The notes under the pieces were generated by a model. It saw only the letters and a program-made list of their open reading frames with translations. It was not told the origin of the DNA and ran no database searches. The position numbers and the translations under genes were made by a program. From an uncultured Desulfobacter sp. (lineage in GTDB: Bacteria; Desulfobacterota; Desulfobacteria; Desulfobacterales; Desulfobacteraceae), in the NCBI GenBank assembly GCA_963665095.1, contig OY762069.1, positions 2,624,001-2,688,000 on the forward strand: a stretch of DNA of 64,000 bases. Reading direction: 5' to 3'. The stretch's first letter is position 1. Every line of letters begins with the position of its first letter. Shown piece after piece: positions 1 to 17,690 of this stretch.

Positions 1-408
1 ATTATCAATATTGAAAATAAGTTGGCAGAACACGGCTCGATGATCAAGGAAGCCCTTGATATCTTGAAAGAGCAGAAGGAATTTCAAGATTATGGTATTG
101 CAGGAATCAAGGCAAAATTGGATCAGGAATCTAAGGCCAATAAACTTTATGATATCCGGAAAAAAATTCTTGATAAAATCGGCAACGATCCTGAATTCCG
201 GTATCCGCACATAAAAATCCTAAACTGTCTTGTAGATCATTATGATTTCCAGGCCAAATGTTTCAAAGAGCTTCAATTTTCACAGCTTGTCCGGCTATCA
301 AAGATCGGCAAGAACAAGGCAGCTGAATACCTGGACCTGCTTATCAGAAAAGGGCTGATTGGATACCGGTCTGATGGCTATCGGAAATATTACTGGATGA
401 CTGCATAA
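1..408 (+). CDS. Winged-helix DNA-binding protein, 5'-truncated by the window edge
   Basis: Frame is open from position 1; C-terminal FSQLVRLSKIGKNKAAEYLDLLIRKGLIGYRSDGYRKYY fits a wHTH. Confidence 0.65.
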   Translation: MINIENKLAEHGSMIKEALDILKEQKEFQDYGIAGIKAKLDQESKANKLYDIRKKILDKIGNDPEFRYPHIKILNCLVDHYDFQAKCFKELQFSQLVRLSKIGKNKAAEYLDLLIRKGLIGYRSDGYRKYYWMTA

Positions 409-420
409 AAAGAATATTTT

Positions 421-771
421 TTACAGATATTCAATCAGTGTCCTAATGATCTCCTGTGGCATCATTTCATTCCAGTCGTCTCTTCCAAAAACTTCATTTG
501 CCTGATATTCTTCCAAAAATATTGATTCTTCTGAATCTTTGTTGAATACCTCTAAACCGACATAGCCAAGCCTGAAATTTGTAGAAAGAACATATGTATC
601 ATCCTCTTGCCTGTAGACTGAGATATCATCGCTATAGCCAGAACTTAATTTCTTTGTATATTTGCCGTATCTGTCTTTATACTGAATTTCAAGCGATGGA
701 TTGAATCTTCCAGCATCAAGCATATCTGTGACGCTTTCTTTCCTGATGACATAATTCTTGATCTTCCTCAT
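421..771 (-). CDS. Hypothetical protein
   Basis: 116-aa ORF, GATGAAGG upstream of the ATG, no recognised motif. Confidence 0.55.
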   Translation of the reverse strand: MRKIKNYVIRKESVTDMLDAGRFNPSLEIQYKDRYGKYTKKLSSGYSDDISVYRQEDDTYVLSTNFRLGYVGLEVFNKDSEESIFLEEYQANEVFGRDDWNEMMPQEIIRTLIEYL

Positions 772-943
772 CCTTCATCAAAGTGCCTGGCAGATTTATA
801 AGATTTGTAATGCAACGGTCACAGTTTTTAAAATCGTGTTCAGAAGAAATATGATGTTCACTCCATACATATCCATATTTATGCATATCTATGATAGGTA
901 CGTTATTTATATAAACAGCATGATTGAGATTCTAATCATAGCA

Positions 944-1267
944 ATGCAGGTGACAGAGGCCTTGAATATTGTAAGATTTAGAGTGGAAGATGATAAAAGC
1001 ATTATGTTGGAGCTTAAAGCGACTGAAGAAGAATTCATCCAGCTGAAAGGTCATGTCAGCAACCTGTGCGTCTTTTCAGATTTTTGCATTTCAGACCATG
1101 CCCGTGTAATTAAATCTGGGTCACGTCACAATACGTCGAAATATTTCTTGCTTCCTGCCAGCATCCGTCGCAATTTCAAGGGGTATGACTATGATAATGT
1201 TAAATGCGGATATATCGTATCAGAAAACCAATGTGTATATTTCATCTATTCTGCAAAGAAGAAATGA
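944..1267 (+). CDS. Small AbrB-like hypothetical protein, paralogue of 1803..2111
   Basis: Shares EE..LKG, FS, KYFLxP..xR and FIY motifs with the 1803..2111 product; ATG 944 chosen by alignment length and a TATA-like box ~30 nt upstream. Confidence 0.65.
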   Translation: MQVTEALNIVRFRVEDDKSIMLELKATEEEFIQLKGHVSNLCVFSDFCISDHARVIKSGSRHNTSKYFLLPASIRRNFKGYDYDNVKCGYIVSENQCVYFIYSAKKK

Positions 1268-1311
1268 TTTGAAATTCCTGCAAGGTACATCCAATAGTAA
1301 GATATATATAC

Positions 1312-1767
1312 TTGATATATGATTTCATTGATTATGGGATTTATAGAAGTAATAAGTTCGCTTGGTGTGTCGGTCTTGCAGCAGTTATTTTAGGAATTTC
1401 ATTTAAAATGAGCCTTTATATTATAATCGGAAGGGTTATTCTTACAATTACAACACTTATTGGATTGTTTATTCTAATGACATTTTCTACTTATGAGAAC
1501 GAAAAGCTCAAAGAAAAAAGGAGATGCCTGGCAAGTCCAGAAATATTAGCTCACATGACTAAAGAGGATAGAGATAAATATAATCACTATCATAAATATC
1601 CTTCTTTAGAAAACCCTCAAGAGATATTGGAGATTATTGAAGTAACAAAATATAAAATGAATCAACGTAAAAGAAGATATAGCAATAGAGAATGGAATGA
1701 AGATGATCACCCAACTAAACATATCAGGAAAGATGTTAACATAAATAAAACTATCAATAAAAATTAA
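1312..1767 (+). CDS. Hypothetical membrane protein (two N-terminal TM segments)
   Basis: Two hydrophobic stretches then a charged tail; very AT-rich; start uncertain. Confidence 0.5.
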   Translation: MIYDFIDYGIYRSNKFAWCVGLAAVILGISFKMSLYIIIGRVILTITTLIGLFILMTFSTYENEKLKEKRRCLASPEILAHMTKEDRDKYNHYHKYPSLENPQEILEIIEVTKYKMNQRKRRYSNREWNEDDHPTKHIRKDVNINKTINKN

Positions 1768-1802
1768 TAATCGCAAATGAAAACCAGAATACTCATGGAA
1801 TT

Positions 1803-2111
1803 TTAAAATACCTTTAAGCCAGTCTTATCGACTATATAGATAAAGAAAATATTATTCTCATTCTCGATTTTCTGGCATCCCACCTTGCATTGCCAGTCTA
1901 TTTTAGACCTTAGATGCCTTGGTATCAGGAAATATTTTGTGACTGAATTTTTTCCTCTTGACGATACGTTTGTATTGAACTCTGCAACATTTTCAGAGAA
2001 CAGATAAATATCATCATAATTCCCTTTGAGCGCTCTTGCTTCTTCATGCCCCACTTCAATCTCAAATATTAGTCCGGCATTGCTTCTCCTGGTGCTGATT
2101 ATCTTGCCCAT
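1803..2111 (-). CDS. Small AbrB-like hypothetical protein (archaeal-type family)
   Basis: MGKIIS...RGKNSVTKYFLIPRHLR...FIYIVDK; ATG 2111 avoids overlap with the divergent gene at 2178. Confidence 0.7.
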   Translation of the reverse strand: MGKIISTRRSNAGLIFEIEVGHEEARALKGNYDDIYLFSENVAEFNTNVSSRGKNSVTKYFLIPRHLRSKIDWQCKVGCQKIENENNIFFIYIVDKTGLKVF

Positions 2112-2177
2112 TATAATGTAAGAAAAATAGGAAGATATATATTTAACCAAGGTATTATCCTGATTATACATATAAAA
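2112..2177. promoter_or_regulatory. Candidate bidirectional archaeal-type TATA promoter between divergent genes
   Basis: 66-bp spacer with a central ATATATATTTAA ~24-31 nt from both ATGs; no bacterial SD before either start. Confidence 0.45.
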
Positions 2178-3080
2178 ATGAGAAGAAAGATAGTATTGAA
2201 CGGACCAAGCAGCCTGACTGTATCGCTTCCGACACAATGGATAAAACAGAATAATGTCTCTAAAGGCGATGAAATAGAGATCAGTGAGGAAGACAATAAC
2301 CTTATTTTGACGGCGGTCAATAATGCCCATAAAAATAAGAGCATTGAACTATCATTTGACAACCTGAACAAGGCAGCAAGAAACAACATTCTTCTTGGAT
2401 TATATATCAATGGCTATGATGAGATAAAGATCAATTTCAGTGAGGCCGATTATTCGAAATCCATATTTGCGTACCTTACAAGCAACCATCTTGGTTTTGA
2501 GATATTGAAGCAGGAGGCAAATTATCTTATAGTGAAAAATATAACGACTCCAAACCTCTCGGAGATGAACAACCTGTTCAGAAGGATGTTCAGAATCCTG
2601 ATTGAATATATGCGAAAGATCTCACATATCATGTCCGCTACTGATGATATGACTGAAACCCCGCTGCTATACAAGACCTCAATTGACAGATATTCAAATT
2701 ACTGCAAACGGATGGCGATGAGTTTAGGGTACAAGAAATCTGTATTCAATAATTCAATTATTGATGATATCCAAAGGATTGCAGCAGAGCTATCAGAGTT
2801 TCTGGATGAGATCAGGGAATCAGACGAGCAAGAAAAGGCAATAATCAATGATGATGGAGTGTTCAATGACCTGATTGGATTCCTTGATGACTGTCATAAT
2901 CTAAGATATAATTTTTCGCAGGAGAGATATTCATCACTTCTTTCATCTTCGAATAAGATATCTGCAAAGATTGATTCTTTCAGGCAAAGAAATGATAATT
3001 CCTGCCACTACGAATACATAAGGTCGATAAATGCAGGATCAAGAAGCATCCTGAACAATATCCTCCTTGAAAATATCTGA
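2178..3080 (+). CDS. Archaeal-type AbrB/MazE-PhoU phosphate uptake regulator family protein
   Basis: N-terminal RKIV..GPSSLTVSLPTQWIK...KGDEIEI AbrB domain, GYDEIKI and GFEILKQ middle motifs, helical PhoU-like C-terminus. Confidence 0.8.
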   Translation: MRRKIVLNGPSSLTVSLPTQWIKQNNVSKGDEIEISEEDNNLILTAVNNAHKNKSIELSFDNLNKAARNNILLGLYINGYDEIKINFSEADYSKSIFAYLTSNHLGFEILKQEANYLIVKNITTPNLSEMNNLFRRMFRILIEYMRKISHIMSATDDMTETPLLYKTSIDRYSNYCKRMAMSLGYKKSVFNNSIIDDIQRIAAELSEFLDEIRESDEQEKAIINDDGVFNDLIGFLDDCHNLRYNFSQERYSSLLSSSNKISAKIDSFRQRNDNSCHYEYIRSINAGSRSILNNILLENI

Positions 3081-3099
3081 AATTCTGCCACGTAGTTAT

Positions 3100-3192
3100 G
3101 GGATAAATTTGAGTTTTTTTTATCCCCAGCTTCAAATAAGGTTTTTATAATTCTCAAATGATATGTCTCTATAAAAATTTTTAGAGGTGAAA
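3100..3192 (+). promoter_or_regulatory. Palindromic operator, BRE/TATA-like box and GAGGTGA ribosome-binding site
   Basis: GGGATAAA-N11-TTTATCCC at 3100-3126, AAATAAGG-TTTTTATAA at ~3134-3150, GAGGTGA-AA-ATG before 3193. Confidence 0.5.
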
Positions 3193-3429
3193 ATGATGAA
3201 AAGAAAAATCAGAAATATAATGGCAATTGTCAGCATGCTGCTTCTCTGTGCAGTCTTTGTGAATGCAGCTGACACAGATGTACAGGCACAAGCACTATTC
3301 GAGCCGGACAATACATGTTCAGCTTTCGACCTATTCTCAGTTGTTGAGCCTGCTCCTGGCTGCAATTTCTATTGCCCATGGTGCCCTGGAACTCTATATA
3401 GCTGTGATTCAGCAGGCAGCTGCTGCTAA
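3193..3429 (+). CDS. Secreted cysteine-rich small protein
   Basis: Signal peptide ending VNA-A; seven Cys in the mature part, ending GSCC; strong RBS. Confidence 0.65.
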   Translation: MMKRKIRNIMAIVSMLLLCAVFVNAADTDVQAQALFEPDNTCSAFDLFSVVEPAPGCNFYCPWCPGTLYSCDSAGSCC

Positions 3430-3451
3430 ATTCTCATAAATTTTTATTTTT

Positions 3452-5641
3452 TTATATTTCCATGAATATCTTGTCTGCCAGGACCAAAGTCTGGTTCCTG
3501 ATTGAGGCATCATCATTATCATAATATAGCTCATCAATATAGACGCTTCCAAATAGTATCCCATCTTGTGTCTCTTGTCTGAAATTTCCTGGTAAAAGCA
3601 GCTGTTTTAGTCTTTTTTTGTATTTATGCTTATCATATCTTTTATAGAACTGAAGCGATTTGACCAAAGCCAGGCTGTCTTCCGGGATATCGTATTCATC
3701 ATTATGATATGAGACAAAAAATTTATCTTTTTGATCTGCTGAATATCTGTCATCATAGTATCTTTCAAGAATCCGGATCTTGTCCATGTAAATCTCATTT
3801 CCAGTCAGTTCATAAAGATCAAGCAGGATTTGTAGCAGCTCCTGGAAGTCTTTTGAGAATATTGAAGTCTTATCCTTGAACTCATCCAGCTCCATTATTT
3901 TATATGAGATATGCCTTCCTACCGGATCATCAAGATACGGAACTACAAGCCTTGAATGCTTATCATCAGGCATGGATACCCCATTGGGCAGGGTCATGTT
4001 CACCATGCTAAGCTCAAAGACATACCCGTCATCTTCGATATTCATGTAAGTGAACTGCTCCATATATTTTTCGGTCAGCTCAAGATATTCAGGATCACCA
4101 GTTGTCTGATAAAGCCAAAGGAAAAGACGGAAATGGTATAGATGCATTGTCTGGACCATTCCAGCGGTCTTTTCAAAATCAGACTCCATCAAATCTGAAA
4201 CTCGGGTAAGCTTTTTCAGGTAAGTCTTCTTGTGCGTCTTTTCATACGCAGGTATCAACGCATAGATGAACCGAAGGTTATCAGAACCGTCATATTTTTC
4301 TTTAAGTATCGGCTCTGTATATTTGACTGCATATTCAAGCAGTTTAGGGTATCTGTCAGACTGTTCAAACAGCATCCCTGCGAAAACGCCTGCTGCCTCT
4401 GATTCAGGACCTTTAAAGACCCAACTCCCATCGGCATTGAGATGGCTTGGATACAGTAGATCCCTGGTATGTGTGTCTCTGAATTCACCCTCAAGCAACG
4501 GATTAAGATACTTCTTCTCAAAACTTCTGTGCTGAAGATCATAAAGTGCAGATTCAAGTTCTGGCAGGCTTGGAGCTGGATTTCTCTCTATCTTATTCAA
4601 TATCGCTTCACTGCTCAGGAAATAGCGGTCATATGCACTATAGCAGCCGCCCGCTATCATGAACAAAATGACGATACTGAAAATCGTAACTATCTCCTTT
4701 TTGTGTTTGGCCACGAATGCCGCCTGCTTCTCATTCCGGTGCAACTTTTCCATGTCAGCCAGTATCTCATTTTCGCTCTTAAAAGATGAATGATTACTTG
4801 CCGCTTTTTCAATCAGGTTCTTTGCCGGCCTTGATAATACATTTTTCGCTACAAAATCATGGCGCAATTTCTGTTCAAGTATCTGTTTCCGGCTCATCCC
4901 AGAAAACGGCTTTGCCCCTGTCAGCATCTCATAATATACCAGGAAAAGCTGGTATACATCAGTCCTCCAATCAATTTTGTTGCCGTTTATCTGTACTCTT
5001 GACAGGTAATTGAGTGTGCCATTGATGCCTTGATTGGTCTTGCCCTGGAACATCGAAATCCCGAAATCGATAAGATAGGGTTTACCATTGCCCTGGATTA
5101 TAAGGTCCAGGAATTCAGCATCGATATTTTTCTTTCGTTTGATACCTTTGACTGACAGGATTATATTTGACGGTTTGATGTCGCAATGGATTACTCGGAC
5201 CTTTTTCCCATCATAACTGACATCGTTGTGCGTGTAATGGAGCGCTTTTAACAGATTGATGATGATTGAGGTTGCTATTTCATTGGGCAATCTTGCATTT
5301 CTTCCGTTCAATGCATCAATGATCTCACGAAGAGAATATCCCTCTATATGCTCCTGCCGAAATATCAATGCATCTTTTGACTCAAGCATGTCATATATCG
5401 CCGGGATATTAGGGTGATGGATAGCGCTCAGTATCTTTCCCTGCTGGATAAATGTTTTCCTCTGAATCGGTTCAACTGATTCAAGGAATTTGATATCTTC
5501 AAGCCTGCCTGCAAGCTTCCTGTTCCTGGCGACAGCAACCCCGCTGAATGGATCACTTTCAAATATATCCAATATTTCAAAATTGTTTTTTTCAAGGATA
5601 GCCTTTATCTGATTGCTTGATCTCTTCAGTGGGTTATCCAT
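3452..5641 (-). CDS. Membrane Ser/Thr protein kinase (Hanks type) with C-terminal alpha/alpha-toroid domain
   Basis: HHPNI, HCDIKPSNI, DFG, GTLNY, TDVYQL; one TM segment (IVTIFSIVILFMIAGG); C-terminal LWLYQTTGDPEY and LYELTGNEIY repeats. Confidence 0.85.
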   Translation of the reverse strand: MDNPLKRSSNQIKAILEKNNFEILDIFESDPFSGVAVARNRKLAGRLEDIKFLESVEPIQRKTFIQQGKILSAIHHPNIPAIYDMLESKDALIFRQEHIEGYSLREIIDALNGRNARLPNEIATSIIINLLKALHYTHNDVSYDGKKVRVIHCDIKPSNIILSVKGIKRKKNIDAEFLDLIIQGNGKPYLIDFGISMFQGKTNQGINGTLNYLSRVQINGNKIDWRTDVYQLFLVYYEMLTGAKPFSGMSRKQILEQKLRHDFVAKNVLSRPAKNLIEKAASNHSSFKSENEILADMEKLHRNEKQAAFVAKHKKEIVTIFSIVILFMIAGGCYSAYDRYFLSSEAILNKIERNPAPSLPELESALYDLQHRSFEKKYLNPLLEGEFRDTHTRDLLYPSHLNADGSWVFKGPESEAAGVFAGMLFEQSDRYPKLLEYAVKYTEPILKEKYDGSDNLRFIYALIPAYEKTHKKTYLKKLTRVSDLMESDFEKTAGMVQTMHLYHFRLFLWLYQTTGDPEYLELTEKYMEQFTYMNIEDDGYVFELSMVNMTLPNGVSMPDDKHSRLVVPYLDDPVGRHISYKIMELDEFKDKTSIFSKDFQELLQILLDLYELTGNEIYMDKIRILERYYDDRYSADQKDKFFVSYHNDEYDIPEDSLALVKSLQFYKRYDKHKYKKRLKQLLLPGNFRQETQDGILFGSVYIDELYYDNDDASIRNQTLVLADKIFMEI

Positions 5642-5832
5642 TTTCGGCTTTTAAGACAGGATTCTGAATAATAGAATTTTTTCCTGATGGGTATTCATGC
5701 TATTGTCTATCCAGACATTTAAATATCTTGCTATATCGAATGTCCAAAGAATCTTGATTTTAATGATTTGAAATGCAGCCTTTTTGGAAATTGGGGAGGG
5801 CTTGTAATTTTTTATATAAGAGAATAGAATAA

Positions 5833-6162
5833 TTATCTTTTCTTCTTTTTTGTGAAACCTTTTCTAAAGGCGTGAAACCGAAAAAGTTTTTTTCTCCTGA
5901 TAATATTTTCTTCATTAATCTCTGATCTATCATCAAGATCTTTTTCTGCCTTTTCCAATAGTCGTTTTGCTGATGTTTGTTCAGGATCAATTTCTAAGGC
6001 GGTCGACAAATACCTTTCCGATTTTTCATTAAGACCCATAAATTGCAGGCTTAAACCGAAGAGAGTAAAGTAGGACACCCCCATCATTTTTAGGTTATCT
6101 CTAAGTTCGTCATTGAACTCTGAATGAACTAATTTTAATATTTCTTGTTTATTATCAAACAT
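5833..6162 (-). CDS. Small TPR-containing hypothetical protein
   Basis: YFTLFGLSLQFMGLNEKSERYLSTALEIDP fits one TPR; basic C-terminal tail. Confidence 0.5.
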   Translation of the reverse strand: MFDNKQEILKLVHSEFNDELRDNLKMMGVSYFTLFGLSLQFMGLNEKSERYLSTALEIDPEQTSAKRLLEKAEKDLDDRSEINEENIIRRKKLFRFHAFRKGFTKKKKR

Positions 6163-6164
6163 AA

Positions 6165-6563
6165 TTAGACACTATTTTTATTATTTGAAAATGGATATTT
6201 GCCATCTAAAATTTTACTGATGCAATCATTAAAATATGAAAAAAAATCGTGGATATTTTTTTTGACGCTACCCGCACTGACCTTTTTTGAGAAATGGCTA
6301 TTACGCAAATCATTATTAATTTTTTCGGCAATTTCTTCATATGTTAGTGATGTTAATGATAAAGTTGTCCAAAAAGAAAGGGAAGATATTTTCTTATCGC
6401 TGACTCTTGATAAACAGAAACATATAATTTTTGTTACCTCACCGGCGACTTCTCTAACAGTCTCAATATCCACCTCATTTACATTTAACTCCATCCTGTC
6501 ATATAAAATTTCTTCAACTAAATCATCCCTCAACTTAAATATTTTATGAAATAAATCAGGCAT
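6165..6563 (-). CDS. Sigma-70 region-4-like HTH protein
   Basis: CLSRVS...LTYEEIAEK...SAGSVKKNIH resembles the ECF sigma region 4; no region 2. Confidence 0.45.
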   Translation of the reverse strand: MPDLFHKIFKLRDDLVEEILYDRMELNVNEVDIETVREVAGEVTKIICFCLSRVSDKKISSLSFWTTLSLTSLTYEEIAEKINNDLRNSHFSKKVSAGSVKKNIHDFFSYFNDCISKILDGKYPFSNNKNSV

Positions 6564-6614
6564 ATTAAAAAATAGCGATATTGTATGATTTTAGCCGTTT
6601 CCTGCGTTAGTAAT

Positions 6615-6815
6615 GTAACTACATCCGTCTTAAAAAGTATCCGTCCAAAATAATATTTGTAACCTATTATGAAATTAACACCTTAAAATTTAAGGTTCAA
6701 GGTTTAATTTAATTGTAACCCTCCAATGTATCCGTAAAAAGTAACCTTCAAATCACATTATTTCCATGTATTTACAGCTGGTTAGATTAGACTTACGGTT
6801 GCAACCCCTGTATCC
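6615..6815. repeat. Cluster of GTA(A/T)CC hexamers around a perfect inverted repeat
   Basis: Hexamers at 6615 (GTAACT), 6637, 6659, 6715, 6728, 6741 and 6810; CCTTAAA-A-TTTAAGG at 6681-6695. Confidence 0.5.
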
Positions 6816-6832
6816 TTGCATTCAAAATAGGC

Positions 6833-7357
6833 TTAAATTTTTAGCCGATAAAAATCTGGCCGATTTGAACCAGAAGCTTTTTCAAGGAGGGAAGTCCCGT
6901 GTTTAGAAATATAATTTGCGTTCAATTTGAGAATTGTTTCAGGCGAAAGGGCAATACCACTCTGGTATTCAATATTTCGACTGATTTCATCAATAGACAA
7001 GGAGCCATTGATTGGTGTGCAGGCATATGCTTGTTCAATGAATTCATCTATATGCCGCCTGAGGTGCATGTAATTTCGCTTATAGTTCGTGATCCTGTCC
7101 TTTATTCCCGGTCGTTTTTTTTCATAGGACCATGTTTTACACTTAAGTTTTTTTTGAGATTTTTTGTACTCAGGGAACAACCAATAATACAAAGTGGCTC
7201 TCGACAATCCGCCATGCTCGATTCCGATCTGTTCCAAAGCGGCAGATTTTTTGTAGCCCTGATTATTAATCAAATCGTTATACATATCAGTCCATTTCTG
7301 AACCAGCTCCGGCCCATAATTCGTAGGCGTTTTAAGTTTCCATTTCTTTTGCCCCAT
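6833..7357 (-). CDS. HTH DNA-binding protein, divergent from the ubiquitin-like operon
   Basis: KSAALEQIGIEHGGLSRATLYYWL HTH; second possible wHTH at LSIDEISRNI. Confidence 0.55.
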   Translation of the reverse strand: MGQKKWKLKTPTNYGPELVQKWTDMYNDLINNQGYKKSAALEQIGIEHGGLSRATLYYWLFPEYKKSQKKLKCKTWSYEKKRPGIKDRITNYKRNYMHLRRHIDEFIEQAYACTPINGSLSIDEISRNIEYQSGIALSPETILKLNANYISKHGTSLLEKASGSNRPDFYRLKI

Positions 7358-7434
7358 GAATCAAAAGGAATGGAATTTCAGTTATATAACTTTCGGCAGT
7401 CAAATAAAGTATTAACAAGAGAGGAGATCAATCA

Positions 7435-7659
7435 ATGAACAAAACAACCACACAAGACGCAATTGAAGGGCTTAGTTCGATTATTGACAATATTGAAAAG
7501 AAAGAGGGCCACAGCGGCTATCTTCTTGAAAAGCTCACCACCCTGAAGATGGACCTGCTTGACGAATTTTTTACATTGAGCAAACCAGCACCCAAAAAAC
7601 AGAAACCGAAAAAGTCAAAAATCGCATCTGCACCGGCTAAAGCCTCGGACCAAATCTGA
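7435..7659 (+). CDS. Hypothetical protein with basic C-terminal tail
   Basis: GAGGAG RBS; first gene of a co-oriented run. Confidence 0.55.
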   Translation: MNKTTTQDAIEGLSSIIDNIEKKEGHSGYLLEKLTTLKMDLLDEFFTLSKPAPKKQKPKKSKIASAPAKASDQI

Positions 7660-7677
7660 TGGAAAGGAGGCCTACTG

Positions 7678-7992
7678 ATGTTTAAAGAAATATACTCCTT
7701 CATACTGTTCTTCATGCCTTTCGCAGTAATAATTAATACTACTTTGTCACTTGATTACCTTTTCAAGGATATTGACCATAGTGCCCGATTGGTTATGGCT
7801 TGGGGCACTAATTTGACATTACTAATTCTTGGTTATTTCAGTCTTTGGTTTATCCTGATTTTTCTCGTTCTAATAACAGCTGCGACCTTGTTCGTCGCTC
7901 TTAAGAGAAACAACATCAATCATAAGGATATTGAAATTTTAAGCCTTATTTACAATCCAAAACAAAAGGAGGAACGACATGGCGTTTCGTGA
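7678..7992 (+). CDS. Small membrane protein
   Basis: AAGGAGG RBS; about three hydrophobic segments. Confidence 0.6.
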   Translation: MFKEIYSFILFFMPFAVIINTTLSLDYLFKDIDHSARLVMAWGTNLTLLILGYFSLWFILIFLVLITAATLFVALKRNNINHKDIEILSLIYNPKQKEERHGVS

Positions 7993-8215
7993 CATGGTTA
8001 AAGAACGGATAGTAGAGATCAATGAGCAACCAAAACTTGTTCCTGAAATCGTTACCCCTAGAGAAATGATTTTGAGGGCTGGTGAAGACCCTAACGTCCG
8101 TGAACTGATTGTAGCATATGAGAATGATACTACTGACGTATGCCCGATTGATGTACCTATCCGGCTCAAGGATGGAATGCGGTTCGAGACACAGGTGCAA
8201 AGCACAAACGGTTAA
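7979..8215 (+). CDS. Ubiquitin-like (beta-grasp) protein with C-terminal Gly
   Basis: AAGGAGGA RBS; 78 aa, VEINEQ..VTPREMILRAG..L..IRLKDGMRFET multi-ubiquitin-type pattern; ends STNG; directly upstream of E2-like and JAB-E1 genes. Confidence 0.75.
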   Translation: MAFRDMVKERIVEINEQPKLVPEIVTPREMILRAGEDPNVRELIVAYENDTTDVCPIDVPIRLKDGMRFETQVQSTNG

Positions 8216-8230
8216 ACTTAAACTGGTTAT

Positions 8231-8260
8231 AGCTGGGAGGCATTGTTCCTTCCAGCTTTC
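8231..8260 (+). terminator. Stem-loop between the Ubl and E2 genes (weak terminator or stabiliser)
   Basis: AGCTGGGAGG-N7-CCTTCCAGCT, 10-bp stem with one G-U pair and a short T run. Confidence 0.55.
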
Positions 8261-8283
8261 CATAAATATTTAAGGAGACAATT

Positions 8284-8724
8284 ATGAATAAAGTTAATGA
8301 TGCAATCAATTCATTTTTTGTCAGACGGTGGCATGCCGCCAACCTTAAGCTTATCAGACAGCTTTATCCAGATGCCATTATGGATCGATTAGGGTTTGAA
8401 TGGTTGGTAATCCCCGAATTTGAACTGCCTAAAGTATACAATCAAAAAAATGCTTTCTTTAGAATGGATATGCCAGGATTAAACATCCATAATCATGAAG
8501 GATACAACTTCTATGTTTCCAAGGGTCTCACAAGGCCTGATTTGGAATCCTTCGAACATATATTTAACGAAAAGTATAATATTCATGCCAATAAAGGATT
8601 ATGCTGGCTGAGTCTTCACATTAAATCATTCAAGCCATCGTTATCCAATATAAATTCTGGCGATACCTTACTGAGCTTGATCCAGAATGTATATAATTTT
8701 CTGGCACTTAAAAAAGGATTGTAA
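8284..8724 (+). CDS. Prokaryotic E2/UBC-fold protein (family E-like)
   Basis: WLVIPEFELPKVYN...MP...FYV..GL...WLSLH..FKP...GDTLLSLI pattern and position between the Ubl and E1 genes. Confidence 0.7.
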   Translation: MNKVNDAINSFFVRRWHAANLKLIRQLYPDAIMDRLGFEWLVIPEFELPKVYNQKNAFFRMDMPGLNIHNHEGYNFYVSKGLTRPDLESFEHIFNEKYNIHANKGLCWLSLHIKSFKPSLSNINSGDTLLSLIQNVYNFLALKKGL

Positions 8725-8727
8725 ACC

Positions 8728-10134
8728 ATGAAAATCAATTTTCTCGCAGTCCTGTTCAATCTTTTAAAAGAAATATTGTTTTGGGATGGAAAGGAGAAAC
8801 AGGTGTTCCTTTTCTGCCATCGTTCATCCTATAAAAACGAAACGACTCTTCATCCATATAAGATCCTCGAAGCAGATGAATCCGATTATACCCACCGGAG
8901 TTCTGGTTATTGCCAAATTGACAAGCCTTTCATTGACAGGGTCTATAATGAAGCGATAGCAGAACAGGCTGATATCATCAAAGTGCATTCGCATCCACCA
9001 GGCTACCCTGCCATTTTTTCACCTATTGATGAAGAAAAAGACCCTGAATTATTAAGGCATATCTCAGCACAGATTGAAGGGATTCAACTCGTATCTATTG
9101 TATTTGACCCGACATTTAAATCAGTTGACGGTTGGTATTATGACAGGGAAAACGATGCAATGCTGCCTGTGGAAAAAATATCAGTCATCAAAGAAAGCGA
9201 TCTTGATATCCTTTTGCCTGAAAGAAGTTCTCTATACCAAAAGCCTTTTGATCCGGTATTGGGCAGGACAGCGGCTGCATTCGGCACAGACCGTGTTATG
9301 AAGATCGGTTGCCTTACTATCGGCATTGTCGGTCTTGGGGGTATCGGAAGTGCATTATATGAAACCATTGCGAGAGATAAGCCTCAAAGAATAATCCTTT
9401 GCGATCCGGATGTTATCGAAAAATCAAACCTAAACAGGATATATGGGGCCACAAAAAAAGATATTGGGAGATACAAAGCAGAATTTTATGCTGGCCAAAT
9501 CAAAAAAATCAGCCCAGATACACCTGTCATTTTCTTCAACAAATCCTTATATGATCCAGAAGTCCAGCAAGCATTCACTCAGGCAGAAATAATTTTCGGA
9601 TGTGTCGATTCAGGGGCAAGGCTGTCCATCAACCAACTCTCGATGGCACACAACATACCCTATTTCGATCTTGGTGCATCAATCGTGAGCGATAAGGGAA
9701 GTCCTGAATACATCGGCGGACAAATATATACATGCATCCCTGGAAACAATGCATGCCTCTCCTGTGCTGGCTGTTTCAATCATCTTCTTTCAGAATACCG
9801 TTCACCCCTGGAAAGGAAAGCTGATGCTGAACAGGGCTATATCAAAGGAGAAGATGTCATTAATCCCTTGGTTGCATACCTTGACCAGATTATCGCAGGA
9901 CTGGGGTACAGCGAGTTCATAAAATACGTTTTTGGTCTGACAGAAAAACCTGCATTTAAGGTCTACTACGATGCTTTGAAGAACAAATTGGTCAGTTCTA
10001 ATTGCGAAACTGAATCCTGTATTGTCTGCCATAAGGATGGTTTTCTCGGCAAAGGCAACAAAGTGCCATTTCTCACACCAAAGGAGGACAAGGAGGATAG
10101 AAACCTGCTCACTGTCCTTGAATCAACGGAATAA
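8728..10134 (+). CDS. JAB/MPN peptidase-ThiF/E1 adenylyltransferase fusion
   Basis: N-terminal HSHP...FSPID JAMM motif; GIVGLGGIGS, DPDVIEKSNLNR, GCVDS, Zn pairs CLSC and CIVC. Confidence 0.9.
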   Translation: MKINFLAVLFNLLKEILFWDGKEKQVFLFCHRSSYKNETTLHPYKILEADESDYTHRSSGYCQIDKPFIDRVYNEAIAEQADIIKVHSHPPGYPAIFSPIDEEKDPELLRHISAQIEGIQLVSIVFDPTFKSVDGWYYDRENDAMLPVEKISVIKESDLDILLPERSSLYQKPFDPVLGRTAAAFGTDRVMKIGCLTIGIVGLGGIGSALYETIARDKPQRIILCDPDVIEKSNLNRIYGATKKDIGRYKAEFYAGQIKKISPDTPVIFFNKSLYDPEVQQAFTQAEIIFGCVDSGARLSINQLSMAHNIPYFDLGASIVSDKGSPEYIGGQIYTCIPGNNACLSCAGCFNHLLSEYRSPLERKADAEQGYIKGEDVINPLVAYLDQIIAGLGYSEFIKYVFGLTEKPAFKVYYDALKNKLVSSNCETESCIVCHKDGFLGKGNKVPFLTPKEDKEDRNLLTVLESTE

Positions 10135-10148
10135 AGGAGGACAATGAA

Positions 10149-10658
10149 ATGACTAATGATGATCTGCAAAATATTTTGCAACAAATACATGTTACCGAAA
10201 ATAGCAGGACGATCCATGACCCATTTCCAGACACATTACCTATCGATAACCAAGCTGCCCAATTAAGCCAAAAAAGAAAGAGGTTGGTCATTATACCGCT
10301 TACTGAAGACACTTTAAACAGTTTGTTTGAACAGAATGTCACAACTGGTATGGTTATCAATGGCCCAGTGGTGATAGATGAGACCAGGTCTGCTCACGTC
10401 GCTGGTTGCGGCCATGTCATCGGATTATCAGACAGCAACACCTTATCTGCAATATGTGGTGTTTGCAACCAGGTCGTCTGCACTCAGCCCCAATGTTCTG
10501 TGCGATGCGATAAATGTTCCTTAATCGTATGTCGAAAATGTGCTTCTGATGTGGATAGCAAAAATATCTGTTCAAACTGCCGGGGCTGGTATGTTTTCAA
10601 GAAGCGTGTCACTGATGCAATTTTGGGAATCCATCATATTCTTTCAAGGAAAATCTGA
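10149..10658 (+). CDS. Multi-zinc-finger protein (B-box/treble-clef-like)
   Basis: AAGGAGG RBS; CGH followed by ten more Cys (11 Cys + 1 His). Confidence 0.75.
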   Translation: MTNDDLQNILQQIHVTENSRTIHDPFPDTLPIDNQAAQLSQKRKRLVIIPLTEDTLNSLFEQNVTTGMVINGPVVIDETRSAHVAGCGHVIGLSDSNTLSAICGVCNQVVCTQPQCSVRCDKCSLIVCRKCASDVDSKNICSNCRGWYVFKKRVTDAILGIHHILSRKI

Positions 10659-10662
10659 AGCT

Positions 10663-12012
10663 ATGTATGATCCATTTGAAACAAATGCGCAACTGGAAAG
10701 ACAGCAGCAGCCTGCAAACAATCATTTTTCTGATTATGAGCAGCTTAAACTTCTGAAGCAAGCAAAATCTGTATATCTGAGCAACGATGATCGTTTTCAG
10801 AAACTGTTACAGGCTGCAACAATCAATCAGGATACTGAGTTTCTGGCAATGGCACAGGAATATCTAAATGAAAAAATTATGCAGAGCCTGACTGATCCAC
10901 ATCCTTTTGAGTCGCCCTCTGCACAAGTTTCATCGATGCCAATGCCTGACCACCCAATACTTATGGGAAAGATCAAACGGGAAGAGCACAGGCCTTTTCT
11001 ATACAAAAAAGATGCCCTCAATCAGCACATATTAATTACTGGCGGAGCCGGTACAGGGAAAACAAATTTACTTTACTCTCTTGTTTTGCAGGTCATCTTC
11101 TATGGTCTATATGTCCTAATATTCGACCGTGACAAAAAAGATTTCCGACACCTGAAAAATTTCAAATTAGGTAAAGATATCATCGTTTTGAGGGTCAAGG
11201 ATTTCTTCTTCAATTTTCTTCAAGTCCCGTCAAATGTCACACCGCAGGAATGGATTATCAGCTTCTGTTTTATATTCACCCATTATTTCGATCTTCTTGC
11301 AGGTTCTGAGGGCTTTCTTATCCCGATTATCACTTCATTATACAGAGACTACGGAATTTTCGATGGCAAGACCACATATCCCAGCCTTAATGATCTCTAT
11401 GACCGTGTTAAAGCTCTCCCTGTCAAAGGTTACTCAATGCGGTTCAAGGACACAATCCTTAACCGGCTTGAATCATTCCTGGCTCTTTACGGTCCTGCCT
11501 GTGAAGTCTCTCAAGGCATTCCTATCGAATATATCGCCAGTAACAACATTGTATTTGAGATATCAGAACTGACCGAACGTGCATCAAGGTTCTTTGTTGG
11601 AGTAATCCTCATGGCATTGTTTAAGCATCGCATTGCTTCAGGGATGATAGGAAATATTGTACGAAATATCGCAGTCATTGATGAATGCAGGTATTTGGTC
11701 CCGCCAGGTTACAATCAGAATCTAAATTTCAGCCCATTGACCTCCCTTCTTTCCCAATCACGAGATGCTGGTATTGGTATTATCCTTTCAGATCAGTCGG
11801 CACAGTTGGAACCAGCGGTTTTCGTGAACACCAGATGCAAGCTCACTTTCCGTCTTGGTAATGGCTTTGATATCAAAAAAATCGCTCAATCGATGTCCCT
11901 CACCAGAGAACAGGAGGCTTATATAACCAGTATGGGTGTTGGAGAGGCTATTGCAAAAATTCCACAGGATGACCCGTTTGTCATCCAGACACTTCCTGTA
12001 AATATTGAATAA
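10663..12012 (+). CDS. HerA/VirB4/FtsK-superfamily P-loop ATPase (DUF87-like)
   Basis: HILITGGAGTGKT Walker A, IAVIDE Walker B, SRDAGIGIILSDQS; ATG 10663 follows AAGGA. Confidence 0.85.
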   Translation: MYDPFETNAQLERQQQPANNHFSDYEQLKLLKQAKSVYLSNDDRFQKLLQAATINQDTEFLAMAQEYLNEKIMQSLTDPHPFESPSAQVSSMPMPDHPILMGKIKREEHRPFLYKKDALNQHILITGGAGTGKTNLLYSLVLQVIFYGLYVLIFDRDKKDFRHLKNFKLGKDIIVLRVKDFFFNFLQVPSNVTPQEWIISFCFIFTHYFDLLAGSEGFLIPIITSLYRDYGIFDGKTTYPSLNDLYDRVKALPVKGYSMRFKDTILNRLESFLALYGPACEVSQGIPIEYIASNNIVFEISELTERASRFFVGVILMALFKHRIASGMIGNIVRNIAVIDECRYLVPPGYNQNLNFSPLTSLLSQSRDAGIGIILSDQSAQLEPAVFVNTRCKLTFRLGNGFDIKKIAQSMSLTREQEAYITSMGVGEAIAKIPQDDPFVIQTLPVNIE

Positions 12013-12022
12013 TGGGGCAATC

Positions 12023-12247
12023 ATGAACCTTTACCAGATAATTATATCGCTCATAGTCCTCATATTGTTTGTCCATGTATTTGAAGCAAAAGAGGCAATG
12101 ACAGAGTTCATAAACCGGCTTTTTGATATACCGAAATTCTCGGATTACGGGTCGAACGAGCCGATTTTCAAAATTGTTGTTCGGGCAATTTATCTCATTA
12201 CCTTGGTTGGTATCATTAAACTGTTTGTAAACAGGGGGAAAAAATGA
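12023..12247 (+). CDS. Small two-TM membrane protein
   Basis: 74 aa, two hydrophobic segments; stop overlaps the next start. Confidence 0.55.
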   Translation: MNLYQIIISLIVLILFVHVFEAKEAMTEFINRLFDIPKFSDYGSNEPIFKIVVRAIYLITLVGIIKLFVNRGKK

Positions 12248-13032
12248 AGATGTACCAGAGAAATGTTACAGATGCGTTTATCCATATGGACACTCAGGCA
12301 AATCTTTCATCAATAATAGATCAGTTTATCGTCCCACGGGTTATCCTTGGAAATTCAGTCAAAGAAAACAAGCCAGTTATCCATAACAAATCTGATGATA
12401 AAAAAATTGTAGAAAAAGCCTCTGAAGATGAGATCCTAGTTCTTGAAAGCATTTTTGAGAATCTAAACCTGCCTTTAAAAAAACGACAGGCCTTGCTTGG
12501 TCTTTCACCCTATATGATGAACAAATTAAAAATTTCAATTATTGAAAAGGGATATTCTTTACAGCTTGATATCAACCTCGGAAAAGAATTCGGCGGAAAA
12601 ATCGTATTATTGGCACTCACTGATAAAGGTCACGATGTTATCGGCAAGGAGCCTTATCTACCAAGACCCTACAAACGGGAATCATTAGAGCATGTATGGT
12701 GGAAATACAATCTCTGGCTGTCATACAAAAACAAGAATATCCCTGCTGAGATCGAACAGGTCAGAAATGGAAAGCATGTTGATATCGGCATTCGTATAAA
12801 TGAACAGAATATAGCAATTGAGGTCGAGCTATCGGCCAAAAATGCCATTACAAACATCATTCAGGATATCAAAGTTGGCTTTGATCGTGTCCTTTCATGC
12901 TCAAAAAGCAAGACATTAGAGAAAGCTATCATACAGCAGTTTGAATCGCATCCTGACTACCTGAAGCTAAAAGATAAAATTGAGTTCCGGCAGTTGTCTG
13001 ACTCCGGATTTGTAAAGGAGATAGCAAAATGA
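12244..13032 (+). CDS. wHTH plus PD-(D/E)XK-like nuclease (replication-relaxation-like)
   Basis: wHTH ending LALTDKG, then ESLEH and HVDIG...IAIEVELS. Confidence 0.6.
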   Translation: MKMYQRNVTDAFIHMDTQANLSSIIDQFIVPRVILGNSVKENKPVIHNKSDDKKIVEKASEDEILVLESIFENLNLPLKKRQALLGLSPYMMNKLKISIIEKGYSLQLDINLGKEFGGKIVLLALTDKGHDVIGKEPYLPRPYKRESLEHVWWKYNLWLSYKNKNIPAEIEQVRNGKHVDIGIRINEQNIAIEVELSAKNAITNIIQDIKVGFDRVLSCSKSKTLEKAIIQQFESHPDYLKLKDKIEFRQLSDSGFVKEIAK

Positions 13033-14081
13033 TTTTTGATGATAGGAATAATTTCACCAAAAACGATGTAATCAAATCATATAGCTATCTTTCTCACAGA
13101 CAACATGGATTTACAGAGCTTTTAGCTATCCACAAAGATTATAAGCCAGGCAGACAGAATTTTAAGTTAAATCTCGAAAACAAGAGATTGCCAAAAGTCT
13201 GGTATACGAAAAATATAAACCATGTCCTTTGGTTCGTATCAAAGTATCATAAGGATCATACGTGCTGTTATGGTGTCAATCCACGGCCAGGAATTCTGAT
13301 AAATCAAAAAGGCAGGATCAGAAGCGCAAAAGAAGACGATATCAAAATACTAAATAATTTCTATTTCGATATCGATTGCAAAAAGCCGAAATCAGAATTA
13401 ACAGATGAATATTTTGCCGAAGTCCAATTCTTTATCGCAGGAACTGAATGCTTTTTTGAAGACCGGGGTATAAATCCGCCAGGTATCGCTTTTTCAGGCA
13501 GAGGTTTCCACCTTCTCTTCACTCCAATCCCGATTCAAGTTGATAAACATCCAGACATCAAACAAAAAATTATCCAGTTTAAAATCGACTATGAACAATA
13601 TTGCAAAGATTGTCTGGAAAAGCTCAATCTTAAAATCGATTCAACTCTCGACCTTAGACGAATGGTCAAGATCTATGGGACAAGCAAACCCAATGTCTAT
13701 AGGCCATCATTGTTTTATGACATGGAACGAGTTGAAGATCCTGCCCTCACGAAATACCTGATAAACATTGAGGTCGATAATGATTCACCAGCCAAATCAG
13801 TGGTCTATATAAGTTCTGGGCTTCCGCAGAATTTCCAACGAATTTTGGAAAATAACCAATTAATCCAGAAAATCTGGGATGGAACCGGAAAGACTCAAGG
13901 TGATGTTTCAAACTCCGGCTACGATTTCTCATTGGTGAAACTTTGCCTGAAGAACCATATCACTGACATAAATGATTTATCAACGATTCTTGCCTTAAGG
14001 CCGAACGGAGCTTTCCAGAAAAGCGGGAAAGATGAAACGTATATTAAGAGGACTGTAAGCAAGGCCATAATGTCATGTTAA
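13029..14081 (+). CDS. Archaeo-eukaryotic primase superfamily (RepB/prim-pol-like) protein with helical C-terminal domain
   Basis: YGVNPR, FYFDID, FSGRGFHL, DLRRMVKIYGT; C-terminal DVSNSGYDFSL. Confidence 0.8.
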   Translation: MIFDDRNNFTKNDVIKSYSYLSHRQHGFTELLAIHKDYKPGRQNFKLNLENKRLPKVWYTKNINHVLWFVSKYHKDHTCCYGVNPRPGILINQKGRIRSAKEDDIKILNNFYFDIDCKKPKSELTDEYFAEVQFFIAGTECFFEDRGINPPGIAFSGRGFHLLFTPIPIQVDKHPDIKQKIIQFKIDYEQYCKDCLEKLNLKIDSTLDLRRMVKIYGTSKPNVYRPSLFYDMERVEDPALTKYLINIEVDNDSPAKSVVYISSGLPQNFQRILENNQLIQKIWDGTGKTQGDVSNSGYDFSLVKLCLKNHITDINDLSTILALRPNGAFQKSGKDETYIKRTVSKAIMSC

Positions 14082-14272
14082 TGTCAAAAACCCGAAATAA
14101 AAAACCGCCGCGCAAAAAACGGCAGAATAATTCCCTGAAGATCACCTATGAATTTTTGCCGCCAGGTTCCTTGAAGCGCAGACTGCCAGGTTCGGAACAA
14201 TCTGCCAAGCAAAGATGGGAAGAGATTCTTGACATATGTGCTGAAACAATAATCGATAATTCCAAAAAATGA
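14081..14272 (+). CDS. Small basic protein, candidate recombination directionality factor
   Basis: 63 aa, Lys/Arg-rich, start overlaps the primase stop, immediately upstream of the recombinase. Confidence 0.4.
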   Translation: MSKTRNKKPPRKKRQNNSLKITYEFLPPGSLKRRLPGSEQSAKQRWEEILDICAETIIDNSKK

Positions 14273-14396
14273 CTTTCTCATTTGTACAGTCCCTACAAGA
14301 GTCGATACTATCTTTTTATGATTTATTGCTTGTCAATATTTTAATTTTGGTTTACCATTTCATACAGTTTCTAAATCTTAAACAAAGGACACTGTT

Positions 14397-16037: not shown

Positions 16038-16071
16038 CAGCCACTCGCTCTGCCAACTGAGCTACTGGGGA
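15996..16071 (-). tRNA. tRNA-Asn(GTT)
   Basis: Reverse complement TCCCCAGTAGCTCAGTTGGCAGAGCGAGTGGCT-GTT-AACCACTAAGTCCGCGGTTCAAGTCCGTGCTGGGGAGCCA; 76 nt, cloverleaf, encoded CCA. Confidence 0.97.
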
Positions 16072-16675: not shown

Positions 16676-17125
16676 ATGATTACTGAAGACGGTATTGTAA
16701 CCCATGCCACCCCTGACACTGCCCAGATAAAAACCATCCGTTCGGCTGCCTGCGAAAGTTGTGCATCAAAAGACTCCTGCGGAGTCGGTCATCACCCCTC
16801 CCAGGAGATGACTGTTACTGTCAAAAACACACTGGGTGTTGAAAAAGGCGATAAGGTCGTCATCGGGATTGAATCCGGCCCGATGATCTTCTTAAGTTTC
16901 CTGCTTTACATCTTCCCAATTATTCTTCTCATCATCGGCGCCCTTATCGGAGCCGCCCTTGCCCCGACTCTTGAAATAAACGAATCCTTCCTGTCCATGG
17001 GTCTTGGATTTTCCTTTTTCGGCGTAGCGTTTCTGGTGATCAGAAAAAAACAGGCCGGCATGTCCGGAAAGGAAAAATACAAGCCTTTTCTCGTCAGAAA
17101 AAAACCTTGTTCAGTTGCTGAATAA
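16676..17125 (+). CDS. rseC: RseC/MucC family protein
   Basis: RSAACESCASKDSCG motif, two TM segments, next to rnf genes. Confidence 0.85.
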   Translation: MITEDGIVTHATPDTAQIKTIRSAACESCASKDSCGVGHHPSQEMTVTVKNTLGVEKGDKVVIGIESGPMIFLSFLLYIFPIILLIIGALIGAALAPTLEINESFLSMGLGFSFFGVAFLVIRKKQAGMSGKEKYKPFLVRKKPCSVAE

Positions 17126-17249
17126 GATTTGGTTTATAAATAATCTGCCGCTATTTTTTTCTTGTAAATCTAAAATCAATATACTATAAACGCTGCCAGT
17201 TGTGGGATCGTCGCCAACCTCTAACCCTAACATTATTGAGAGAAGAACT

Positions 17250-17615
17250 ATGACATCACAACGCGACCTGAAAGTAGCTTTATGGATCATGATCGTTCTT
17301 TTGGTCACAGGGATCGTTTGTTACGCATCCTTTTCCCCTCCTGCGTCGGAGAATCCAGTCAGGCTGATGTTTCAGAACAAAGCCGGCAAAGTTTTATTTA
17401 CCCACCTCATGCACACGGACACCTATTCCCTGGAGTGTCTGGACTGCCATCACAACATTGAAGACGATGAAACCTACAACTGCAGTGAGTGTCATGAAGA
17501 AACGGGTGATGAAAGCATGCCGTCAAGGGCTGATGCATTCCACGCCACATGCAAGGGGTGCCATGAAGATTATGGTGCGGGTCCGGTAGAATGTAATGCA
17601 TGTCATGCACGATAA
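17250..17615 (+). CDS. Membrane-anchored/periplasmic tetraheme cytochrome c3-family protein
   Basis: N-terminal TM; four CxxCH (CLDCH, CSECH, CKGCH, CNACH); VLFTH..H motif. Confidence 0.9.
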   Translation: MTSQRDLKVALWIMIVLLVTGIVCYASFSPPASENPVRLMFQNKAGKVLFTHLMHTDTYSLECLDCHHNIEDDETYNCSECHEETGDESMPSRADAFHATCKGCHEDYGAGPVECNACHAR

Positions 17616-17690
17616 ATTTCTTTAAAGGATATAATTTCCTATGAAATTTCAGGCTTGGCTCAAGATTTTTACAAAACTCAAGGACTAGTT

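Follow-up and report, generated by a model that had tools for sequence, protein, structure and literature searches.

Passages in Castelle et al. (2021; PMC8204110) and Huang et al. (2021; PMC8421398) describe the transfer of metabolic genes from bacteria into DPANN archaea, including Woesearchaeota and Pacearchaeota, and the former paper states that few uncharacterised DPANN families are detected in bacteria and raises the possibility that bacteria are the hosts of some episymbiotic Woesearchaeota; according to PMC11291902, every cultivated DPANN archaeon depends on an archaeal host. The locus considered here lies in a 64,000-nucleotide window, the whole stretch of DNA analysed, from the chromosome of an uncultured Desulfobacter sp. 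(assembly GCA_963665095.1, contig OY762069.1), and in the DNA upstream of it. The host genome (G000), whose gene content suggests a Desulfobacter-like sulfate reducer, is a single 6.9-Mb contig (completeness 97.4, contamination 4.9); window position 1 corresponds to G000:C1:2,624,001, and negative positions lie upstream. A genomic island at a tRNA-Asn gene carries DNA that is very likely derived from Nanoarchaeia, which we take to be the name of the class of genome G565 (the holder of locus L006, titled Ca. Woesearchaeota archaeon), and resident in the bacterial chromosome; the four genes at 1803-5641 form an archaeal module that is linked physically to a bacterial recombinase and tRNA gene. 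Set beside the passages cited above, the locus shares with them gene exchange between Woesearchaeota or Pacearchaeota and bacteria, and differs in its direction, from archaea to bacterium, and in involving uncharacterised, lineage-restricted genes held as syntenic blocks in a delimited island. In open-licence PubMed Central and bioRxiv, neither a bacterial island carrying blocks of Nanoarchaeia genes nor these families were found described. An earlier reading of the sequence alone (the original prediction) had seen at 1..5725 an archaeal-looking block inside a bacterial integrated element, explained either by inter-domain transfer or by a chimeric assembly; its open reading frame (ORF) positions were confirmed, and transfer is the alternative that best matches and trees support.

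Bacterial islands that large serine recombinases insert at tRNA genes are the closest described counterpart of the element as a whole, which shares with them resolvase, recombinase and zinc-ribbon domains, short attachment (att) cores, a tRNA-Asn target as in its host-phylum relatives, and a defence cargo of Gabija, type III restriction-modification (RM) and prokaryotic Argonaute (pAgo) genes. The best NCBIfam scores of the window recombinase are with CcrB and XisF, below cut-off. Its best match in the host phylum is 40% identical over residues 3-543 (E 6.7e-115), nine of 150 host-phylum genomes have a match at E<=1e-40, and tRNA-Asn is present in six of these nine loci, while the best Nanoarchaeia match is partial (36% over residues 4-367). 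The element differs from such islands in that part of its cargo is archaeal and in that, among its ORFs, many of which are unannotated, the search for relaxase, coupling-protein and mating-pair genes recognised only HerA/VirB4-like ATPases, below cut-off.

The island occupies 71.9 kb at the 3' end of tRNA-Asn (G000:C1:2,568,136-2,640,004), with 55.9 kb of it upstream of the window, a size that follows from its att cores and from empty sites in relatives. The 9-bp core TGGCTCCCC has only two copies in the 77 kb examined, at 15996 and at -55864 (G000 2,568,136); the latter, the left att site that the original prediction had expected upstream, adjoins the terminator hairpin that trails tRNA-Asn in relatives. 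Nine of the eleven relatives fetched have an empty site, with tRNA-Asn no more than 4.5 kb from the left-flank gene, and the other two gave no match within 20 kb. Per 2 kb, GC content lies at 26-47% between about -57 kb and +16 kb, versus 44-57% for most of the DNA on either side. No joint of an excised or circular island was found among the contig joints listed.

Table 1. Features of the island; positions are those of the window unless marked G000.
Feature	Position	Strand	Basis
Second Nanoarchaeia-type block: HerA, ribbon-helix-helix-like ORF, tyrosine integrase, ParB, ArdC, RadC, IS110, RHS/FG-GAP/LamG cassette	G000 2,580,762-2,601,861 (-43.2 to -22.1 kb)		annotation
Bacterial Gabija and type III RM cassette	G000 2,602,170-2,615,126		annotation
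IS66	G000 2,616,230-2,619,515		annotation
Right-hand 16 kb of island	1..16004		att cores, empty sites, annotation, affinities
144-aa ORF, C-terminal winged helix-turn-helix (wHTH)-like segment, starts 26 bases before window	1..408	+	weak: HTH_36 E 0.046, Sso10a E 0.005
116-aa ORF	421..771	-	ORF call
KYFLxP paralogue 2, divergent family member, start codon uncertain	about 950..1267	+	E 4e-32 to family profile
AT-rich ORF, hydrophobic N-terminus	1312..1767	+	ORF call; no placed relative in profile search or archaeal loci
KYFLIP protein 1, 102 aa, Nanoarchaeota-restricted family	1803..2111	-	24 relatives at 57-67% and profile searches
Divergent intergenic region, A-rich, with TATA-like element as in archaeal homologues	2112..2177		by eye from 9 homologous spacers
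AbrB-PhoU-type regulator, 300 aa	2178..3080	+	MazE/AbrB N-terminus E 1.5e-8
Small secreted-type peptide, 77 aa, hydrophobic leader and six invariant cysteines	3196..3429	+	alignment with 4 syntenic copies, 34-38%
Membrane Ser/Thr kinase of 729 aa with PknB-like kinase domain, helix at 314-342 and (alpha/alpha)6 barrel at the C-terminus	3452..5641	-	profile matches and structure model
Three small ORFs of 109 aa (TPR-like), 132 aa and 174 aa, none with a Shine-Dalgarno (SD) site	5833..7357	-	no placed relatives (profile search, archaeal and metagenome loci)
Bacterial-type operon, AGGAG sites: small ORFs, ThiF/E1 protein, HerA-like ATPase, 350-aa protein	7435..14272	+	profile matches, ribosome sites
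Large serine recombinase, intact, bacterial tRNA-Asn-targeting group	14397..16037	+	three Pfam domains over cut-off; C-terminus reads into tRNA
Right att core TGGCTCCCC	15996..16004 (G000 2,639,996)		repeat search
Host tRNA-Asn(GTT), sole copy in G000	15996..16071	-	tRNA search

The four genes at 1803-5641 keep a Woesearchaeota-type chromosome order. A KYFLIP gene divergent from AbrB-PhoU, followed by a convergent kinase gene, recurs at four of 80 genome loci (L006, L007, L008, L056) and, among 28 metagenome loci, at L114, L116, L117 and L120; the kinase is 33-41% identical over about 700 residues in three of the four genome loci, matches partially in L056, and reaches 41-47% in the metagenome loci. 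Neighbours in the syntenic archaeal loci are chromosomal genes (GAPDH, CDP-archaeol synthase, CDP-alcohol transferase, copper-type ATPase, DEAD helicase). In two midpoint-rooted trees, built from archaeal and unnamed metagenome loci with no named bacterial outgroup, the window kinase domain falls on an ordinary end branch inside a 13-row clade (100/99) whose four named members are all archaeal (31 rows from tblastn, G000 giving no further row), and KYFLIP 1 groups (0.92) with exactly the nine PhoU-linked loci (104 rows, without L021). For AbrB-PhoU there are 11 relatives at 27-40%, of which one is named Woesearchaeota, and its identity to the syntenic archaeal copies is 32-41%. Both the regulator and its archaeal affinity had been predicted and stand, the PhoU part through relatives named 'phosphate uptake regulator PhoU', one of which carries PF01895, with no Pfam PhoU match on the copy at 2178-3080 itself. 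Additionally, the kinase and the small Cys peptide belong to the same archaeal module, a connection overlooked in the original prediction.

The KYFLIP family points in the same direction. Scanning 185,579 species genomes yielded 103 relatives, and among the best 80 of these, 60 bear the title Woesearchaeota, Pacearchaeota, Nanoarchaeota or Nanoarchaeia, 19 have other archaeal titles and one is filed under Nomurabacteria. The Nomurabacteria contig (L021) matches a Woesearchaeota contig (L019) at 99.99% identity across 9,232 bp; its filing is, to judge by this identity, a binning error in the public record, and the best 80 loci are therefore all archaeal. The title 'Methanosarcinales' on 14 of these 80 is doubtful, McrA being absent in all five genomes tested (1.1-2.1 Mb, incomplete). 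The family profile matched none of 400 other host-phylum genomes and 8 of 151 Nanoarchaeia genomes, and the family alignment matched no viral contig. Of the 24 relatives of KYFLIP 1, the two with organism names are Nanoarchaeia and Woesearchaeota, and the original prediction's assignment of the family to Woesearchaeota/Pacearchaeota is upheld here, by the species-genome scan and by the profile searches. The two small KYFLxP paralogues already recognised are 26-28% identical to each other, and the second matches 73 of the 80 archaeal loci. The family has 225 representatives at 50% clustering; its Atlas clusters are 87-100% archaeal, although such clusters cannot show a family's full range.

Physical linkage was examined through a separate de Bruijn assembly (k=31) of runs X1, X2 and X3, which gave one unbranched 45,592-bp contig each, with 0 differences over the 18,724 bases compared. 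The query spanned -2,699 to 17,300, and the contig covers -2,699 to 16,024 of it, ending at a shared tRNA-Asn node. Counted back from there, 45,592 bases reach -29,567, exactly where the island's 32-bp internal repeat at -29,569 must break a k=31 assembly; it is therefore very probable that the contig has no branch between the small RHS gene and the bacterial tRNA gene (G000 2,594,433-2,640,024) and takes in the defence cassette, module and recombinase on the way. The junction near 5.7-5.8 kb, where a chimeric join had been suspected, is thus crossed, and the block edges show no loose end beyond 19-23-base chance matches. In the second sample (X4) all 30 bins were covered by short pieces, none crossing 5.6-5.8 kb among the pieces listed.

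Upstream of the window lies a larger block that the original prediction missed, and the assignment of its RHS/LamG cassette and tyrosine integrase to a Nanoarchaeia type is well supported by sequence comparison. At a threshold of E<=1e-12, the integrase is matched in 33 of 151 Nanoarchaeia genomes (37% and 4.6e-62 for the best) versus 1 of 150 host-phylum genomes, and its archaeal relatives often follow a tRNA gene. The large RHS protein reaches 39-40% in three of 141 Nanoarchaeia genomes, versus 22-25% on plasmids and 25-28% to other RHS genes of G000. Genome G624 matches all four cassette genes at 37-47% and in identical order, a KYFLIP gene following after about 2 kb, and in G651 a tRNA gene, a weak integrase match, an RHS pair, a kinase, AbrB-PhoU and KYFLIP lie within 38 kb. 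HerA matches at 33% over its full length in G642, where it adjoins a homologue of the 191-aa ORF, versus partial matches of 25-30% on plasmids. ArdC, IS110 and RadC do not discriminate between an archaeal and a bacterial origin, and some of the upstream-block families were compared with bacterial chromosomes.

The closest described relatives of this block are the tRNA-associated tyrosine-integrase elements of Nanoarchaeia, which it resembles in an integrase of about 400 aa with archaeal XerA as best NCBIfam match (below cut-off), a TATA-like element upstream and RHS genes downstream as in G651. The differences are a bacterial chromosome, no tRNA gene before the integrase and no att pair found. 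Before the integrase, at G000:C1:2,583,700-2,583,885, about where archaeal relatives have their tRNA, stands a putative long hairpin, its arms forming an 11-base near-perfect inverted repeat. Ahead of this hairpin is a string that we take to be B recognition element (BRE)/TATA-like. The RHS cassette (G000:C1:2,591,220-2,599,915; L002:7220-15915) includes a small RHS gene with a membrane ORF after it, IS110, and an orphan RHS tail accompanied by a further small membrane ORF, which is the arrangement of a Nanoarchaeia-type polymorphic toxin-immunity locus.

Ribosome sites offer a further comparison. In the upstream block, 7 of 17 genes have GGAGGT/GAGGTG and none AGGAG; the corresponding numbers are 7 versus 55, plus 5 with both, among 283 host background ORFs, and 39 versus 22, plus 3 with both, among 591 ORFs of archaeal loci. 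Genome-wide, only 3 of 1,377 overlapping 25-kb windows have at least five GGAGGT/GAGGTG and at most one AGGAG, and all three lie over this block. At 421-5641, six of seven starts are without a usable SD site (duplex energy -4.2 to +3.6 kcal/mol) and the seventh, that of the Cys peptide at 3196, has GAGGTGA; from 7435 on, AGGAG precedes 6 of 12 starts, one of the 12 being mis-set. The predicted change in SD usage is therefore real as far as these two sets go and fails as a boundary mark at 5.7 kb, since the genes at 5833-7357 also lack SD sites.

We suggest the following history. One Woesearchaeales-type (class Nanoarchaeia, DPANN) region of up to about 30 kb, comprising a tRNA-associated integrase element and neighbouring chromosomal genes, would have recombined into a bacterial serine-recombinase island, its archaeal region would later have been split by the bacterial Gabija/type III RM/IS66 cassette, and a host insertion sequence (IS) would then have entered the island's pAgo gene. 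The Gabija and type III RM genes between the blocks are bacterial-type, at 52% and 59% to plasmid genes. That module and integrase/RHS block instead stem from separate captures, differing in archaeal donor or in time, is a real though minority possibility, which would change the history and leave the archaeal origin as it is: bacterial genes and a distance of 18-24 kb separate the blocks, their GC content differs (34.5% in the RHS block versus 37.5% at 0-5.7 kb), and the KYFLIP and PhoU genes beside RHS in G624 and G651 are more distant (28-41%) than the kinase-linked copies. A single capture is favoured by the occurrence of RHS cassette and KYFLIP as neighbours in two of the three Nanoarchaeia genomes with this RHS and by the NYN gene between the blocks, whose best tested match is also in Nanoarchaeia (33% full length versus 27.5% partial on plasmids), and two rare captures into one island would be less economical.

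Several observations weigh against a Nanoarchaeia origin or narrow what can be said of it. The closest module relatives are 45-67% identical, so that the donor is unsampled and the event undated, and capture may have taken place in this lineage, in another bacterium or in an archaeon hosting the bacterial element. No DNA-level relative of 1-15,990 was found in 150 family genomes, which places the island in one genome only, and the KYFLIP locus counts cover the best 80 relatives and not the remaining 23, with bacteria beyond the host phylum sampled only by the species-genome scan. Within the window, three ORFs of 1-1767 (the wHTH ORF, 421-771 and 1312-1767) have no placed relatives. Upstream, three results sit less neatly with this origin: ArdC is 43% identical to Nanoarchaeia and to an Alicyclobacillus (Bacillota) plasmid alike, ParB has only weak matches, in 1 of 5, and the 102-aa duplicated protein has a match in only one of 201 Nanoarchaeia genomes (and none in viral contigs). 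Furthermore, neither 53 archaeal tRNAs nor a repeat search revealed an att pair or tRNA remnant bounding the archaeal DNA, and the ribosome-site difference of the upstream block (Fisher p 3e-6) uses motif classes picked after the sequences had been seen.

Composition adds a point of the same kind, because the tetranucleotide correlation of the module (1.8-5.7 kb) is 0.56 with the host (host windows median 0.55) and 0.44 with the closest archaeal loci, the median of archaeal windows versus the host being 0.17. The tetranucleotide profile along the contig proposed in the original prediction thus does not separate the module from the host, and GC content, at 33-42% from 1 to 16 kb, has no step at 5.7 kb. 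The RHS block gives 0.32 with the host and 0.50 with close archaea. GATC depletion in the module is common to archaea, CTAG and TGCA depletion to the host; composition is compatible with or without some amelioration and gives no date.

With regard to the assembly, the stretch is present in four runs, all from one study, and X1, X2 and X3 from one sample, probably the source of the G000 assembly; their contigs therefore test the assembler and are not an independent sample. The integrase/HerA/ParB part lies outside the 45.6-kb contig. Depth in X1/X2/X3 is 6.05/8.54/13.4 on the island versus 9.7/11.9/28.7 on the host flank (ratio 0.47-0.72); a second contig enters the tRNA node at depth 2.9 in X2 and 15.5 in X3, closing the gap, and would fit a co-occurring strain without the island.

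A Nanoarchaeia source nevertheless remains the preferred reading, and a donor from an unsampled bacterium, for example of the candidate phyla radiation (CPR), long carrying these families, with no recent domain crossing, is improbable. Such a donor would agree with the KYFLIP locus filed under Nomurabacteria, with the one host-phylum genome that has the integrase, on a 5.3-kb contig, and with the host-like tetranucleotide score, which fits long bacterial residence, but the Nomurabacteria contig copies an archaeal one, no other bacterial locus occurs among the best 80, the TATA-like element and archaeal-type ribosome sites are kept, and the Atlas clusters are archaeal within the limit stated. 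Least likely of all, and very unlikely, is a false joining of Woesearchaeales DNA from the same mixed sample into the bacterial contig: each run is a large assembly of mixed origin, with 332-476 Mb in contigs, island depth is under that of the host flank and no independent genome has the island, yet several false joins without shared repeats would be needed, the separate assembly crosses both block edges unbranched in three runs, the depth gap in X2 and X3 is matched by the second contig, and att cores and a 100% identical host IS lie inside the island.

Within archaea, the module most likely serves as a receptor-kinase signalling unit, the simplest reading in view of the conserved secreted-type peptide, the divergent regulator pair, the kinase anatomy as modelled and the conserved order. 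Anatomy and gene order suggest that the outer barrel of the membrane kinase would sense either a glycan or the Cys peptide encoded next to it, with transcription controlled by the divergent AbrB-type pair. PknB-type receptor Ser/Thr kinases are the nearest known proteins. Like them, the window kinase (model mean pLDDT 80) has the kinase fold (1mru: Z 26.0, rmsd 2.2, 250 aligned), a kinase-transmembrane-outer domain layout and conserved Hanks-type motifs (beta3 K51, D154, K156, N159 and D192-G194, with HCDIKPSN and DFG). Unlike them, it has no canonical Gly loop and, in place of PASTA domains, a barrel similar to unsaturated glucuronyl hydrolase 3wiw (GH88-like; Z 26.8, rmsd 3.4, 325 aligned), and its alphaC Glu is replaced: position 67, presumably the alphaC position given helix 58-71 of the model, is Gln here versus Glu in all eight covering homologues. 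A class IV lanthipeptide synthetase was considered and rejected on a LanL score of 29.7 against a cut-off of 650, a membrane helix between the domains and listed barrel matches to GH88 and epimerases, a match list that leaves LanC possible.

In the bacterium, the module would most likely be a passenger rather than used by the host, because of Gln67 in the kinase, the loss of the spacer palindrome (the TGTACA of archaeal homologous spacers is, by eye, not intact in 2112..2177) and the lack of SD sites at most starts. General decay is not seen: all four module frames are open in G000, and private changes at otherwise invariant kinase columns (9 of 111) are no more frequent than in three divergent archaeal copies (12 of 114, 20 of 122, 24 of 123). 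It is rather unlikely, though worth stating, that the whole of about 30 kb passed in one event by cell contact, as the footprint of a DPANN archaeon living or preying on its bacterial host, and that peptide, barrel-kinase and AbrB pair form an undescribed archaeal peptide-receptor signalling system.

For the KYFLIP protein, the C-terminal half is probably an AbrB-like swapped hairpin. The family profile has a sole, weak PDB match at E 0.88, 3o27, identified as C68 in a passage of PMC5569661; the likeness to such regulators consists in the alignment at the KYFLIP motif and the divergent promoter arrangement, and the differences in an extra N-terminal half, the weakness of the match and the lack of any Pfam AbrB match in 94 KYFLIP members. 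Alignment of the KYFLIP and AbrB-PhoU families (hhalign) gave a probability of 0.2, and the structure model is of low confidence (pLDDT 55.8) with an uninformative fold search (best Z 5.2). In archaeal loci L005-L084, genes for a KaiC-like ATPase, receiver and histidine-kinase-type proteins usually come after the KYFLIP gene, which is often present as a divergent pair of paralogues, a setting that may represent an undescribed signalling neighbourhood of Nanoarchaeota.

The edges of the archaeal DNA are less sharp than the predicted 1..5725. Firmly archaeal are 1803-5641 and the paralogue at 950-1267; as the ORFs at 1-771, 1312-1767 and 5833-7357 have no placed relatives, the proven span is 1803-5641 and the true edges are uncertain, the right limit lying somewhere in 5642-7434. 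The ORF predicted to encode a wHTH protein exists, its HTH identity resting on weak hints (Table 1), and had no relative among 30 candidates; the 116-aa ORF had no Pfam or NCBIfam match over cut-off, no Atlas match and none in archaeal loci. Directly before the wHTH ORF lies a RadC protein with an N-terminal SymE-like segment (G000:C1:2,623,322-2,623,972; L001:19322-19972). Beyond 7435, one operon at 7979-10134 comprises a 78-aa ORF ending in Gly, a 146-aa ORF and a ThiF/E1 protein with an N-terminal extension, which we take to be a possible ubiquitin-like conjugation set, the E1 part alone having been matched; the 350-aa protein at 13029 had no match in viral contigs.

Near the island's left end, a class II pAgo gene with a Cas4-like nuclease partner (G000:C1:2,569,385-2,576,296; L003:5385-12296) is interrupted by a 3.54-kb IS with 12 further copies in G000, 11 of them at 99.9-100%. 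The tRNA-Asn region is duplicated in three relatives (L101, L102, L105), one with a 4-kb insert, and the site therefore appears to be in repeated use. Directly after the tRNA, a host Rnf-type operon region begins (16676-20522), syntenic within the genus. Rfam searches of the 60 kb upstream of the window gave one match, judged chance, and G000 also has tRNA-Pyl (G000:C1:900,717-900,790) and tRNA-Sec (5,485,637-5,485,734) genes.

Exchange between DPANN archaea and bacteria has mostly been described in the direction of the archaea. Within known inter-domain transfer, the locus is a reverse-direction, block-sized case with its vehicle: an att-bounded bacterial island with syntenic Nanoarchaeia blocks shows both the reverse route and the means of carriage. 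It also cautions against treating every lineage-specific DPANN gene in a bacterial bin as contamination. A bacterial chromosome is seen to carry a Woesearchaeota signalling module that looks intact, and the locus points to a candidate bacterial partner lineage, and to a sample type, for Woesearchaeota.

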